Origin: Candidatus Limnocylindria bacterium
GTDB lineage: Bacteria; Chloroflexota; Limnocylindria; P2-11E
Direction: 5' to 3'
Length of the DNA stretch: 31,841 nt
Assembly (NCBI GenBank): GCA_036564585.1
Contig: DATCOR010000308.1
Span: 1 to 31,841 of the forward strand
The translations under genes were made by a program, and so were the position numbers. Positions 2,866 to 6,896 of this stretch are shown piece after piece. The notes under the pieces are model-generated. The model made no database searches. It saw nothing but the letters and a program-made list of their open reading frames with translations, and was not told where the DNA came from. Each line of letters starts with the position of its first letter. Positions within the stretch are counted from its first letter, which is position 1.

Positions 2866-3582
2866 AAGAAGCGCGCGGTGAAGAAGCCGTACGTTCCGAA
2901 GGTCACGCCCGCCCTGCGCGCCCGCGCGCGCACGATCCTCGCGCGGCTCGAGAAGACCTATCCCGATTGGGGCCCGACCCTCGAGTTCGCCGATCCGTTG
3001 CAGCTCCTCGTGGCGACGATCCTCGCCGCGCAGGCCCAGGACGAGCGGATCAACCAGGTCACCCGTACGGTCGTCTTCCCCAAGTACCGGTCCGCCGCCG
3101 ACTACGTCGCGGTCAAGGTCGCCGTCCTCGAGCGCGACCTCAAGCCGACCGGCTTCTTCCGCCAGAAGACGAAAGCGGTCAAAGGAGCGGCGCTCGGCAT
3201 CGTCGAGCGCTTCGGCGGAGAGGTGCCCCGCGACATGGAGGGCCTCACCTCCCTCCGCGGGGTCGGCCGGAAGACCGCTTCGATCGTCCTTGCGAACGCC
3301 TTCGGGGTGCCGGCGATCGCCGTGGACCGCCACGTCGCCCGGGTCGCCGCCCGGCTGGGCTTCAGCCGCCAGACCAAGCCGGACGAGATCGAGCAGGACC
3401 TTCGGGCGGTCTTCCGGGAGCCAGATTGGGTCAAGGCGACCTGGAATTTGATCCTTCATGGACGCCGGATCTGCAACCCGACCCCCAAATGCCCGGAGTG
3501 CGCGGTCATCGATCTCTGTCCCTATCCGAGGAAGACGAAGCCGCAGAGGTCCGCGTCGAGAGCCATCCGCCGACCGAGCTGA
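2794..3582 (+). CDS. nth: Endonuclease III (HhH-GPD, 4Fe-4S) with Lys-rich N-terminal extension
   Basis: LLVATILAAQ, HhH LRGVGRKTA (catalytic Lys), AVDRHV (catalytic Asp), HGRRIC..C..C..C cluster loop; ATGA overlap with the OCD-family gene. Confidence 0.92.
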   Translation: MKKAGPMKKAGPRKKAAPKKKAVPKKRAVKKPYVPKVTPALRARARTILARLEKTYPDWGPTLEFADPLQLLVATILAAQAQDERINQVTRTVVFPKYRSAADYVAVKVAVLERDLKPTGFFRQKTKAVKGAALGIVERFGGEVPRDMEGLTSLRGVGRKTASIVLANAFGVPAIAVDRHVARVAARLGFSRQTKPDEIEQDLRAVFREPDWVKATWNLILHGRRICNPTPKCPECAVIDLCPYPRKTKPQRSASRAIRRPS

Positions 3583-3889
3583 ATGACAGGATGAGCACGT
3601 CGCTGATGACGATGCTCAGCGTGTCGGCGAGCACGTTCGTCACGCTGGCGTTCCCTGCGCTCGCGGCGATCGAGGCCGTGACGATGGCGAGCATGCCGAC
3701 GATCGCGCCGTGGTACAGGCCGTCGCGCCCGGCCATCCGTCCCGCGACGTAGCCACCGACTGCTGTGCCTGCGAGGCCTCCGATGGCCGGAAAACCGAGG
3801 AAAATCGCGAGAATCGCGACCACTATTGAGAGCGCCAGGCCGGCGGCCACGGCGCGCGCGTCGAGCTCCGGCATCGATCGTCGGGCCAT
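3506..3889 (-). CDS. Small multi-pass membrane protein (DUF5518/TIGR04086-like)
   Basis: Four hydrophobic segments and GGYVAGRMAGRDGLYHGAIVG; TACGCT hexamer 7 nt before ATG 3889 supports the start; 3' end overlaps nth convergently. Confidence 0.7.
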   Translation of the reverse strand: MARRSMPELDARAVAAGLALSIVVAILAIFLGFPAIGGLAGTAVGGYVAGRMAGRDGLYHGAIVGMLAIVTASIAASAGNASVTNVLADTLSIVISDVLILSFSSVGGWLSTRTSAASSSSDRDRDR

Positions 3890-3910
3890 CGGCGACAGCG
3901 TAGGTCGGGC

Positions 3911-3948
3911 AAAAAGAAACCGATCCGCCCAGGCCTAGAGCGGATCGG
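3911..3948 (-). terminator. Rho-independent terminator
   Basis: CCGATCCGC-(11 nt)-GCGGATCGG followed by TTTCTTTTT on the minus strand. Confidence 0.8.
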
Positions 3949-3981
3949 CGAGATCGCGAAAGGTGTCGGATCGTGAGTACG

Positions 3982-4007
3982 AAAGAGCGACGACCTTCGT
4001 CGTCGCT
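3982..4007 (-). terminator. Hairpin/terminator directly after the Lys-rich microprotein
   Basis: AGCGACGAC-GAAG-GTCGTCGCT then CTTT, starting 13 nt after the TAG at 4021. Confidence 0.65.
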
Positions 4008-4020
4008 ACACGTCAAAGAG

Positions 4021-4083
4021 CTACTTCTTCTTCGAGGACTTCTTCTTGGCCGTCTTCTTGGCGGCCTTCTTCTTCGCTGGCAT
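4021..4083 (-). CDS. 20-aa lysine-rich microprotein MPAKKKAAKKTAKKKSSKKK
   Basis: Below the ORF-track cutoff. ATG at 4083, TAG at 4021; extended SD GAAGGGGGTGA 6 nt upstream; all 11 Lys codons are AAG; downstream hairpins. Confidence 0.8.
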   Translation of the reverse strand: MPAKKKAAKKTAKKKSSKKK

Positions 4084-4114
4084 TGGAGATCACCCCCTTC
4101 TGGCCACGGATTGT

Positions 4115-4149
4115 TTGTTATCTAGACACACACACCCGAGTGATGTCAA
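4115..4149 (-). promoter_or_regulatory. Candidate sigma70-type promoter for the microprotein
   Basis: Perfect TTGACA at 4149-4144 just after the rsrA stop. The -10 is ambiguous (TCTAGATAAC region 17-19 nt downstream) and is followed by an AT-rich stretch. Confidence 0.5.
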
Positions 4150-4152
4150 TAG

Positions 4153-4392
4153 CTAGAGCGGTGTGTCGCTCTCCATCCGCAGTCGGGCGACGATGCGCGT
4201 TCGGAGCTCCGTCGGCGCCACGTCCTCTTGGCAGCAGTCGCGGACGCGGGCGAGGAAGCGCTGTTCGAGGACGAAGCTGTCCTCGCACCCACCGCAATCG
4301 TCGAGGTGCGCGCGGACCTCGGTGACCTCGGCCGGGGCGAGCTCCCGGTCGAGGTACGTGTACAGGCGCTCGAGGCAATCGGCGCAGTCCAT
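4153..4392 (-). CDS. rsrA: Zinc-binding anti-sigma factor (RsrA/RshA-like, zf-HC2)
   Basis: MDCxxCxERLYTYLDxEL and ZAS motif HLDDCGGC (HxxxCxxC); 79 aa, no TM segment; directly after the ECF sigma. Confidence 0.88.
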   Translation of the reverse strand: MDCADCLERLYTYLDRELAPAEVTEVRAHLDDCGGCEDSFVLEQRFLARVRDCCQEDVAPTELRTRIVARLRMESDTPL

Positions 4393-4400
4393 CGGCTCCC

Positions 4401-4982
4401 CTAGTCCGCCGGCCTCGGCATCGCGCGAGCGGCGACGATGCCACGGTCCCGCGCGAGGTCGTAGAGGCGCTTCTGGAGGAACTTCCGCCCGCGATGCAGC
4501 CGGCTCATGACGGTCCCGATCGGGATGTCGAGCACCTCGGCGATCTCCTTATAGGAGAACCCTTCGACGTCGAGCAGGAGCGTGGTCCGAAACTTCTCGG
4601 GCAGTGCCTCGAGCGCGTCCTTCACTTCGCTGGAGAGGGTGTTATCGATGAGCTCGGCCTCGGGGTCGGGCGACGCCGATCCGGGGCTCACGTCCCGCAT
4701 GTGCCGGTACAGGATCGACTCCTCGACGTCGTCGAGCTCCGTCGTGTCCGGCCGGGCGGCCTTGCGGCGGTACTGGTTGATGAAGGTATTCGTGAGGATC
4801 CGGAACAGCCAGGCCTTCAAATTGGTGCCCAGCGTGAATTGGTGGCGGAAGCGGAACGCCCGGATGTAGGTCTCCTGCACGAGGTCCTCGGCCTCCGCCT
4901 CCGAGCGCGTCATCCGGAGGGCCGTTCGATACAGCGCATCGAGGAACGCGAGCGCTTCGGTCTCGAAGGGATCGGCGGCCAT
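4401..4982 (-). CDS. sigR: ECF sigma factor, SigR/SigH-like
   Basis: [65 protein letters not shown]; paired with a ZAS anti-sigma. The symbol denotes family, not proven orthology. Confidence 0.88.
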
Positions 4983-4988
4983 GTCCTC

Positions 4989-5025
4989 ACTCTACGGGAA
5001 CAATTCAGGGCTTTCGGCGCATTCC
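4989..5025 (-). promoter_or_regulatory. Candidate dual promoter of the ECF sigma: GGAAT-N19-GTT plus TAGAGT -10
   Basis: GGAAT at 5025-5021 and GTT at 5001-4999 match the SigR/SigH-type motif GGAAY-N18/19-GTT; TAGAGT at 4994-4989 lies 6 nt before the ATG. Confidence 0.6.
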
Positions 5026-5045
5026 AGGACTAGCATCCCGCGGTC

Positions 5046-6896
5046 ATGAGCGACGTGGATGTCGAGCGCAGCGAGAGGCTCCGAAGCGTCGATCTGACCT
5101 CCGGTCTCGATCGGGTGGCGCTGGCCCGCCTGGCCGCGTACATGGATCCGGTCTCCGTGCCGGCGGGCGAGGCGATCATCACCGAAGGCGAGACCGGCGA
5201 CGCGCTCTACATCATCGTGCGCGGGACCTTCGCGGTGCTCGTCGATGGTGCACGCGTGAACACCGTCGGCCCGGGTCACTACGTCGGAGAGCTGGCGCTG
5301 CTGATCGACGAGCCGCGATCGGCGACGATCCGCGCGGACACCGACGGCGAGGTGCTTCGCCTCGAGCGTCAGCAGTTCATGGATCTGTTGGGACGCGACG
5401 CACCGGCCGCGCGAGCCGTCGCGACGACGCTCGCCCGCCGGCTGCGCCGGCGCGACGGCGCGCTGCCCGATGAGGCAGAGGCCACTCTCGCGGCGATCCC
5501 GGTGCGCGCTCCCCGGTCGGCGCGCGCGCCGATCACGAAGATCGTCGGTCTGGTCATCGCGATCGCGCTCGGCGCGGCAGCGTTCTCGCCGCTCGTCGAT
5601 CTCGCGCAGTGGCGCTTCGCGTTGCTGCTGTTCGCGGCGGTCACGCTCTGGGTATCCGAGCCCGTGCCCAACGTGGTCGTCTCGCTCGGGCTGGTCGGCG
5701 CCCTGGCCCTGACCGGCATGGCCCCGTCCTACGCGGTGCTTCAGGGCTTCGCGACCCTCAACTGGGTATTCGTCCTGTCCGTGCTCGGCGTGGCGGCGGC
5801 GGTGGCCCGCTCCGGCCTGCTCCTGCGTCTCGGCCTCCTGCTCATCGAGCGGGTGCCCGCGCGCCCGGCCTGGCAGTCGGCGACGTTCCTCCTCACGGGC
5901 ATCGTGCTGACGCCACTCCTTCCGCTCGCGATGGCCCGCGCGGCGATCACCGCGCCACTTGCGGAGGGCGTCTCCGACACGATGAAGCTCCCAGCGCGCG
6001 GCCCAGCGAGCGCCGCGCTCGGGCTCTCGGCGTGGATCGGCTCGGGACCGTTGATGTTCCTGTTCATGAACGGCTCGACGGCCTGCCTCGTGGCCTGGAG
6101 CCTCATGCCGATCAAGGACGAAGTCGAATTCACCTGGACCCAGTGGTTCCTGTCGGCGGCTCCGCTCGGGGCCATCATCGCCGTCGGTTCGTTCGTGGCG
6201 ATGCGCGTCATGTTCCGCACGGGCCCTCGGCCGGCGCCGGCACGCGCGCCACTGCGGCTACAGCGGGCCATTCTCGGCCCGCCGTCGACCCGCGAGCTTT
6301 TGATCCTCGCGATCGTCGCCTCCATGCTCATCGGGTGGATTGTCGGCCCGCAGTTTCTGTGGCCGCCGGGTCTGGTCGCGCTCTTCGCGTTCATCGCGGT
6401 GATGATCGTCGCCGGCGTGTCGGATCTGAAGAACCTCGATTGGGAGTACCTCATCTTCTTCGGCGTGCTGCTGTCGATCGCGGAAGTCGCAAAAGGGCTG
6501 TCGCTGGACAAGATCGTGGGTAACAGCGCGGCCACATGGCTCACCCAGCTCGGACTCGGCGGCGCAGGGCTCGTCATCCTGGCCGGCGTGGTCACCATCC
6601 TCGTGAAGTCGCTGTTGGCCGCGGATCAGGCCGTCTTGCTGTTGTCGTTCGCGTTCATCCCCGTCGCGACGGCGGTGAACATCAGCCCCTGGCTGGTGGC
6701 GGTGGCCATCCTTGCGCTCGGACTCAGCTGGCACGTGCCGGCGCAGTCGCCGGAGTACCTAGTCGCGTACGGCGCGACCCACGGGCGCCTCTACTCGCAC
6801 GCGCAAGGGCGCCGGATGGCCCTTGTCTATGAGGCGATCGCGCTCGCGGGTCTCGCGATCTGCCTTCCGTACTGGCACCTGCTCGGCTACCTCTAG
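5046..6896 (+). CDS. cNMP-binding domain fused to an SLC13/DASS-like (ion transporter superfamily) permease
   Basis: N-terminal cNMP cassette (IITEGETGDALYIIVRG...VGELALLIDEPRSATIRA) followed by many TM segments with LWVSEPVP and FMNGS motifs. Confidence 0.8.
   Translation: MSDVDVERSERLRSVDLTSGLDRVALARLAAYMDPVSVPAGEAIITEGETGDALYIIVRGTFAVLVDGARVNTVGPGHYVGELALLIDEPRSATIRADTDGEVLRLERQQFMDLLGRDAPAARAVATTLARRLRRRDGALPDEAEATLAAIPVRAPRSARAPITKIVGLVIAIALGAAAFSPLVDLAQWRFALLLFAAVTLWVSEPVPNVVVSLGLVGALALTGMAPSYAVLQGFATLNWVFVLSVLGVAAAVARSGLLLRLGLLLIERVPARPAWQSATFLLTGIVLTPLLPLAMARAAITAPLAEGVSDTMKLPARGPASAALGLSAWIGSGPLMFLFMNGSTACLVAWSLMPIKDEVEFTWTQWFLSAAPLGAIIAVGSFVAMRVMFRTGPRPAPARAPLRLQRAILGPPSTRELLILAIVASMLIGWIVGPQFLWPPGLVALFAFIAVMIVAGVSDLKNLDWEYLIFFGVLLSIAEVAKGLSLDKIVGNSAATWLTQLGLGGAGLVILAGVVTILVKSLLAADQAVLLLSFAFIPVATAVNISPWLVAVAILALGLSWHVPAQSPEYLVAYGATHGRLYSHAQGRRMALVYEAIALAGLAICLPYWHLLGYL

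Follow-up and report, generated by a model that had tools for sequence, protein, structure and literature searches.

An oligolysine micro-gene beside the sigH-rsrA locus of Limnocylindria, duplicated in its genome and possibly a miniature relative of histone H1-like polycations

Between a sigH-rsrA pair and a membrane protein gene, a stretch of DNA from Candidatus Limnocylindria, an uncultured soil member of the Chloroflexota (contig DATCOR010000308.1 of assembly GCA_036564585.1, positions 1 to 31,841, ~69% G+C; the whole of this 31,841-nucleotide stretch is referred to as the window) carries a 20-codon open reading frame (ORF) in which more than half of the codons specify lysine. This raises the question of whether such an ORF is a gene at all and, if so, what a peptide of such reduced composition could do. 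The ORF, designated copy A, occupies the minus strand from the ATG at 4083 to the TAG stop at 4023-4021 (4083..4021) and encodes MPAKKKAAKKTAKKKSSKKK, 20 amino acids of which 11 are lysine, with AAG used for every lysine codon. An original prediction, made from this sequence alone, described a TTGACA hexamer, an extended Shine-Dalgarno (SD) site, the lysine-rich ORF, and two hairpins, the second with a T-run, and all of these elements are present on the minus strand. It proposed either a lineage-specific replacement for the small ribosomal protein bL37 or a minimal nucleic-acid-condensing peptide. Sequence comparison across relatives indicates that this is a true protein-coding micro-gene, present in two copies and with a conserved reading frame, and discrete RNAs in soil metatranscriptomes show that it is transcribed as a unit of its own. 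As to its function we tentatively prefer, with confidence falling just short of an even balance, an abundant polycation that acts through its charge by binding nucleic acids or other polyanions.

The earlier argument that so complete an expression cassette is unlikely to be a chance occurrence is borne out by both its rarity and its conservation. When the complete 2.19-Mb assembly was scanned for short lysine-rich ORFs, exactly two were returned, copy A and a paralog, copy B, which encodes MPAKKKAAKKTSKKKAKKK on contig 65 (G000:C65:3400-3459; L016:1518-1577). Conservation across the family extends to the ORF, SD site, promoter boxes, and hairpin 1. DNA searches against 40 relatives recovered the locus within the genus at 70-97% identity, together with a second, shorter match to the part comprising the SD site and ORF in almost every genome. 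The peptide is identical or near-identical in 14 loci of the same genus whose flanks are as little as 81% identical in DNA sequence, and variants of it follow rsrA in more distant relatives, namely MAAKKKAAKKSSKKSSKKK in a different genus of the same family and MAAKKKSKKGGKKK in a further family of the order. A profile built from the peptide alignment missed both known copies in their own genome, and DNA patterns were used for the wider census instead. The start pattern GGTGA-N4-9-ATG-SCN-GCN-AAR-AAR-AAR matched 83 of 91 family genomes, in most of them at two sites, with no matches to the reversed pattern that served as control, and it gave no match in 195 genomes from two other families of the class. 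A looser pattern matched 26 of 27 family genomes and gave sporadic, unrelated matches elsewhere. Some of these tallies and alignments include sequences flagged as unpublished (G007 (L005), G011, G298 (L083), and G375 (L071)), and no statement made here rests on those alone. The conservation of frame, SD site, and lysine content that the original prediction named as its own check is thus seen in related genomes.

The manner in which the ORF varies is that expected of a coding sequence. Among 30 distinct family peptides, 12-21 amino acids in length, the only residues found are lysine (57%), alanine, serine, threonine, glycine, proline, and histidine in addition to the initiator methionine; arginine, aromatic residues, and hydrophobic residues beyond that methionine do not occur. 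Because a slip of frame through the AAG repeats would create arginine, glutamate, or aspartate codons, the lack of all three residues points to coding constraint. In the alignments, successive AAG runs are always in phase with both the start and the stop codon, length differences between genera amount to whole codons, and the codons of Pro2 and Ala3 differ among genomes in their third position. Paralogs within one genome are closer to each other than orthologs are between genomes, being identical in one genome (G003) and one residue apart in another (G005), which points to gene conversion or to a constraint shared by the two copies.

The two copies stand in unrelated surroundings. Copy A lies in the order sigH, rsrA, micro-ORF, membrane gene, and copy B in the order uracil-DNA glycosylase gene, gene for an excisionase-family helix-turn-helix (HTH_17) protein, micro-ORF, CAP-domain gene. 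No conserved promoter-like box was found ahead of copy B, which starts ~45 nt past the stop codon of the HTH gene, and on the strength of this spacing and the missing box it is probably co-transcribed with that gene. On its 3' side copy B is followed by an invariant GC hairpin, GCGCCGCGGGCGGGCGGCGC, which has no T-run, and then by the nonamer CTTTCGTAC; the same nonamer also stands after hairpin 1 of copy A, and there are five occurrences of it in the assembly.

Copy A, by contrast with copy B, has a promoter-like arrangement of its own. In an alignment of copy-A loci from several genera, the -35-like hexamer TTGACA (4144..4149, minus strand) is invariant in 26 of 26 sequences while the adjoining intergenic bases vary. 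A second box, TGTGTCTAGATA (TGTGTCTATATA in other genera; 4119..4130, minus strand), is near-invariant and present in a single copy in the genome; it is probably the -10 region. Taken over the 26 loci, the invariant or near-invariant signals are TTGACA, the box TGTGTCTA(G/T)ATA located 12 nt 3' of it, and the leader GTGGCCAG(A/G)AGG(A/G)GGTGAT, and the spacers between them drift while the signals stay. The conserved 5' untranslated region GTGGCCAGAAGGGGGTGATC (4088..4107, minus strand) contains the long SD site (GGAGGTGAT in most relatives), here the stretch GAAGGGGGTGA at 4100-4090 on the minus strand, which is complementary to the canonical anti-SD sequence, the 3' end of the organism's own 16S rRNA lying outside the assembly. 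Downstream of the ORF, hairpin 1 (GCGACGACG AAGG TCGTCGC, with its tail at 3979..4006, minus strand) consists of the hairpin proper at 4006-3987 followed by the T-rich tail TCTTTCGT. It is kept as a GC hairpin in 18 of 18 sequences, with a stem sequence that differs between genera, and it is the working terminator of the micro-gene.

Metatranscriptome data agree with this layout. Many soil, rhizosphere, and plant-associated metatranscriptomes contain 32-41% of the sampled words of positions 3905-4150, compared to 5-8% of those of positions 3400-5000. In four runs from four studies of soil or rhizosphere, contigs were placed on positions 3300-5100, that is, on copy A, and each run yielded a single contig, 127-164 nt long, having 3-6 mismatches and a depth of 3-21. 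These contigs cover positions 3965-4116, 3953-4115, 3966-4071, and 3979-4117; rsrA and the membrane gene have close to zero depth in the same runs. The contig starts at 4115-4117 are 2-4 nt downstream of the TGTGTCTAGATA box and the other ends fall at 3979, 3966, 3965, and 3953, a recurrence that fits a transcript starting just 3' of the conserved box and ending just past hairpin 1. The conserved -35 and downstream boxes and these discrete RNA contigs, flanked by genes of almost no depth, support the view of the original prediction that the ORF forms a transcription unit of its own.

From these elements a simple scheme may be drawn. A sigma-70-type promoter, composed of TTGACA and the TGTGTCTAGATA box, would drive an RNA of ~140-165 nt, in which a 34-nt leader carrying a very strong ribosome-binding site precedes the 20-codon ORF and the GC hairpin terminator. 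The peptide would be translated, presumably in quantity, and loss of the initiator methionine would probably leave a mature product beginning PAKKK (PAKKKAAKKTAKKKSSKKK with the methionine removed). With a charge of about +11 and no residue able to build a fold, this product would be a disordered polycation resembling the tail of histone H1, and it might coat or condense nucleic acids or other polyanions, possibly polyphosphate. The likeness to H1 tails is drawn from the fact that the peptide cannot fold alone, that its length drifts while only its charge and N-terminus are kept, and that its basic residues are exclusively lysine, although arginine codons would suit a genome of 69% G+C. The location of copy B directly behind genes for a DNA-binding HTH protein and for DNA repair may also be counted in favor of this reading.

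A comparison with characterized bacterial H1-like systems, namely Chlamydia Hc1 and Hc2, Pseudomonas AlgP, the PAKK repeats at the C-terminus of mycobacterial HupB/Hlp, and Streptomyces DdbA (PMC2848022, PMC9239181, PMC3643593), shows both agreement and some clear disparities. The low-complexity composition of lysine, alanine, proline, and serine, the AKKA and PAKK motifs, variation in length by gain and loss of repeats, and the use of lysine in place of arginine are shared with these proteins by the 30 family peptides, and the resemblance to PAKK-type H1 tails claimed in the original prediction holds with regard to both composition and motifs. In contrast, the known proteins, which bind and compact DNA or associate with polyphosphate or PHA granules, are ~100-240 amino acids long or are tails attached to a folded domain, whereas the oligolysine peptide has 12-21 residues, forms no long tandem array, has no attached domain, and comes from a free-standing gene that is present twice and equipped with a promoter and terminator of its own. 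On balance the micro-gene would best be filed as a miniature, stand-alone variant of the H1-like polycationic proteins, and of the two functions originally offered, condensation of nucleic acids appears to be the better reading than replacement of bL37.

Several points weigh against this assignment. A length of 12-21 amino acids is far below that of any characterized H1-like protein, and the nucleoid protein HU is present in 21 of 21 family genomes, so that there is no missing nucleoid protein to call for a replacement. The neighbors of similar micro-ORFs in other phyla (discussed below) are heterogeneous, including PrmC, SerRS-SecA, LpxC, HEPN, and sigma-54 activator genes, and point to no single process. 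The metatranscriptome contigs are strandless, assembler depth is a poor measure of expression, and much of the depth at 4032-4092, where the AAG repeats lie, comes from lysine-rich sequences of other organisms. The peptide product itself, which we infer from sequence, would be destroyed in trypsin-based proteomics, and what it would bind is pure inference.

A role as a stand-in for HU was considered and rejected, as HU was found in 22 of 22 genomes from the two gene-bearing families. Since HU occurs wherever the peptide does, the peptide would be an addition to the nucleoid complement and not a substitute within it. Separately, the three other families of the class show an unusual apparent lack of HU (PF00216), as none of their 68 genomes searched, each 90% complete or better, gave a match.

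The first alternative to an H1-like polycation to be weighed is a ribosomal one, and here the proposed replacement of bL37 must be separated from a broader ribosomal role. That proposal was based in part on synteny, the placement of bL37 directly after sigH-rshA in mycobacteria, and on this point the evidence, drawn from other actinobacteria and from Chloroflexota, is mixed. As examined through RsrA representatives, the adjacency does exist in Cellulomonas triticagri, where a 24-amino-acid bL37 (MSKRGRKRRSRAGSSANHGKRPNA, Pfam HR_L37) is encoded directly after sigma-rsrA, but it lies there on the opposite strand in convergent orientation, and no bL37 was present at the one Streptomycetaceae sigma-rsrA locus inspected. 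At the bL37 loci of other Chloroflexota neither sigH nor rsrA was found within 1.5 kb, and a literature search for a link between bL37 and sigH found nothing relevant. The replacement itself does not stand, as a 35-amino-acid basic, bL37-like protein, MSKGQRKQKTTGKLGWRSKKANHGRKPGMGRGKRN, is encoded elsewhere in the same genome (G000:C154:2331-2435; L025), with a strong terminator after the gene, and occurs, at 79-100% identity, in each of the 39 family genomes searched. This protein carries an M-S-K...ANHG..P motif, is 42-54% identical to bL37 of Cellulomonas and of other Chloroflexota, and has weak NCBIfam matches that are below the cut-offs (NF047429, E=0.035; NF047428, E=1.4); it appears to be a divergent bL37 with a 5-amino-acid insertion and a C-terminal extension, although public sources name it "hypothetical protein." With a motif-bearing gene coexisting in the genome and family, bL37 has not been replaced. 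The oligolysine peptide, for its part, was rightly called unlike bL37 from the outset, as it lacks the M-S/A-K ... ANHG(K/R)(R/K)P motif of the true proteins (24-35 amino acids; NF047428, NF047429, PF26427) and has no NCBIfam match. True bL37 occupies a 23S/5S rRNA pocket close to H39/H89.

A lineage-specific, ribosome-bound microprotein filling an rRNA pocket, analogous to bS22/eL41, bL37, or Thx without replacing bL37, fares better and ranks second to the H1-like polycation, but we still consider it unlikely. The peptide is tiny and very basic, has maximal expression signals, and is encoded twice, and bL37 does lie beside rsrA in Cellulomonas. In size (20 residues compared to 24-35), in high positive charge, and in being frequently missed by annotation, it is similar to bL37, bS22 (NF047430), eL41, and Thx. 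Furthermore, bS22 was not found by NF047430 in the genome studied here or in any of 101 genomes of the class, yet it is present in 25-34 of 151 genomes of the phylum, so that a bS22-type site could be vacant in this class. However, the bS22 and bL37 of the phylum keep a fixed length and fixed motifs that include arginine, histidine, tryptophan, and hydrophobic residues, whereas the oligolysine peptide has none of these motif elements except an occasional histidine, varies from 12 to 21 residues in a low-complexity sequence unlike any known pocket-filling ribosomal microprotein, and has no sequence match to bL37, bS22, or Thx; in particular, it does not resemble the ~30-residue pattern MGS(V/I)(I/V)KKRRKKM.KHK..K.L...R..R of bS22 (NF047430). 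The retention of the bL37-like gene in all 39 family genomes also argues against a ribosomal role, and two other families of the class are without both bS22 and the oligolysine gene, so that the two show no complementary pattern. The oligolysine gene is never found in a ribosomal-protein operon, while true bS22 is located between uL23 and uL2 in some Chloroflexota, and the bS22 loci of the phylum showed no neighboring gene for an excisionase-family HTH protein.

The idea that copy B occupies the position of actinobacterial bS22 behind an excisionase-type HTH gene was dropped as unsupported; the genes upstream of the Chloroflexota bS22 loci examined were those of uL23, a HIT-domain protein, and UbiA, with no HTH gene among them. 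In some Chloroflexota with small genomes, bS22 is encoded within the S10 operon, directly between uL23 and uL2 (L207:1498-1593, L209:1498-1593, and L210:1495-1590). Together with the divergent bL37-like gene of Limnocylindria, which is currently annotated as hypothetical, this placement of bS22 in some Chloroflexota represents a gain for annotation that is independent of the function of the oligolysine peptide.

An improbable alternative is that the ORF is a regulatory leader peptide or upstream ORF, the peptide having no role and the translation of its lysine codons controlling the downstream gene through lysyl-tRNA sensing or ribosome stalling. A short ORF followed by two hairpins just upstream of a co-directional gene is what such a device would look like, and the second hairpin lies in an ultra-conserved, terminator-containing element directly ahead of that gene. 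This non-coding element of ~63 nt (3911..3973, minus strand; GATCCGRCACCTTTCGCGAWCYCGCCGATCCGC...GCGGATCGGTTTCTTTTT) includes hairpin 2 at 3949-3919 followed by the T-run TTCTTTTT, is single-copy in the genome, has its 3' end ~20 nt ahead of the membrane gene, and is almost invariant across genera while the flanking proteins diverge to 50-75% identity; it is a candidate second terminator, a candidate control region of the next gene, or both. Against a leader function, the paralogs precede unrelated membrane and CAP-domain genes, neither of which is linked to lysine, and the N-terminus, composition, and frame of the peptide are conserved, with paralogs that co-vary within genomes. The RNA contigs stop past hairpin 1, with close to zero depth over the downstream gene in the same runs, and the ORF has its own conserved promoter. 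The membrane gene also seems to have a start of its own, of a leaderless type, with TACGCT placed 7 nt ahead of its ATG at 3889. A single fold of the transcript gave hairpins 1 and 2 and no convincing alternative pairing over the ORF, no dedicated search for an antiterminator having been made.

It is less probable still that the functional product is a small non-coding RNA, or that the locus is a slippage-prone AAG repeat, with the open frame being incidental in either case. The transcript is indeed a discrete RNA of ~150 nt with structured ends, and AAG repeats are low-complexity sequences that can expand by slippage. However, the ATG, the very strong and well-spaced SD site, the frame of the AAG runs, and the stop codon are kept in every locus in spite of insertions and deletions, neither the micro-gene transcript nor the 3911-3973 element matched an Rfam family, and the transcript as a whole has only a modest folding advantage over shuffled sequences (z = -2.2).

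Oligolysine peptides are antimicrobial in vitro, and this may be counted toward a reading of the product as an exported antimicrobial polycation or as a member of a toxin-antitoxin pair. The same may be said of the inhibition of bacterial growth by bS22 and bL37 peptides (PMC10085706) and of the placement of a micro-ORF after a HEPN-domain gene at three loci of other phyla. Such a function is nonetheless hardly credible, as neither locus contains a signal peptide or a transporter, immunity, or modification gene, and the peptide has none of the amphipathic or hydrophobic face typical of such molecules.

The preferred reading, a polycation acting through its charge, may apply beyond this family. 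A scan of a genome collection with the same start pattern returned at least 120 loci, and among the 120 listed are 80 lysine-rich micro-ORFs of 6-47 amino acids (median 21), ten AKKA-repeat proteins of 51-270 amino acids with the same start, and ~30 unrelated sequences, compared to ~26 chance matches estimated from the degeneracy of the pattern and the size of the collection. These pattern matches form a size continuum from micro-ORFs to long AKKA-repeat proteins with a common start. Among the matches listed, the sources include Acidobacteriota, Nitrospirota, Eisenbacteria, Methylomirabilota, Patescibacteria, Verrucomicrobiota, Bifidobacterium, Eremiobacterota, Dormibacterota, DPANN archaea, and others. 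Clustering of the neighbors of these look-alikes in other phyla yielded only lineage-specific syntenies. It is possible, and we put it forward as a suggestion toward which we do not yet lean, that oligolysine peptides of ~10-50 amino acids encoded by stand-alone, strongly expressed micro-genes constitute a widespread, unannotated class of polycations with members in over ten bacterial phyla and in DPANN archaea. Their role would be that of a small-scale H1 or a "proteinaceous polyamine" serving the nucleoid, RNA, ribosomes, or polyphosphate, and the Limnocylindria pair would be one example, well conserved and transcribed.

Two related observations may be recorded here. At two loci from other phyla (L181 and L184), two tandem oligolysine micro-ORFs lie ~95-120 nt apart downstream of a HEPN-domain gene, and the two copies in L184 are identical. 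In addition, a family of the class with genomes of ~1.1 Mb encodes a 103-111-amino-acid H1-like protein, MAAKKKAKKAVAAAAPAAPKVKKAKK..., with the start motif of the micro-ORF (L056-L059, L111). The notion that sister families carry a longer H1-like protein at the same position was not retained, as the 103-111-amino-acid protein of this third family is found in a different context. In one sister family positions are not comparable, since it has no clear SigH ortholog (best matches 34-39% identity).

The original description of the peptide as unannotated is accurate. The exact peptide and two variants are absent from ~15 billion predicted proteins, and no NCBIfam family matched the peptide at E<=1. 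Pfam likewise gave no match, in a scan that is uninformative since it also missed a true bL37, and sequence searches of the PDB with the peptide and with the bL37-like protein returned nothing useful. In a search of the literature on lysine-rich small ORFs, no description of such genes was found. With ORFs of this size rejected by gene callers and their product lost on digestion with trypsin, the peptide is invisible to standard genomics and proteomics alike. Even so, its RNA is present in soil and rhizosphere metatranscriptomes from many studies, and the peptide may rank among the most abundant polycations of the cells that carry it. If it does bind DNA, RNA, the ribosome, or polyphosphate, it would be a new and very simple player in bacterial chromatin or translation, with a reach that would extend over abundant uncultured soil lineages and, judging from the pattern scan, many other phyla.

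The genes surrounding copy A can be assigned with varying precision. The upstream pair consists of a SigH/SigR-like sigma factor of the extracytoplasmic function group (4401..4982, minus strand), whose best NCBIfam match, SigH_actino, is below its cut-off, and an RsrA-like anti-sigma factor of the ZAS type (4153..4392, minus strand), which matches PF13490 and TIGR03988 (RsrA; 73.5 bits compared to a cut-off of 62.5) and whose close relatives carry the source name "mycothiol system anti-sigma-R factor." The syntenic downstream neighbor (3506..3889, minus strand) encodes a 127-amino-acid membrane protein with a weak DUF3792/TIGR04086 match. In one relative (L004; G019:C22) the rsrA match is in two pieces ~100 nt apart, for which a small insertion or an assembly artefact is possible.

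Public contigs of metagenome-assembled genomes filed under Thermoanaerobaculia (L092), Candidatus Saccharimonadales (L163), and Actinomycetota (L125) also contain the oligolysine locus. SigH and RsrA of the first two are 95-99% identical to those of the window, and the third contains one of the family's peptide variants along with a more distantly related homolog of the membrane gene; these filings likely reflect mis-binning or mislabelling. Elsewhere in the window, the plus strand at 5046-6896 encodes a 616-amino-acid fusion of an N-terminal cyclic-nucleotide-binding domain to a membrane domain of the Na/sulfate-symporter or citrate-transporter type.

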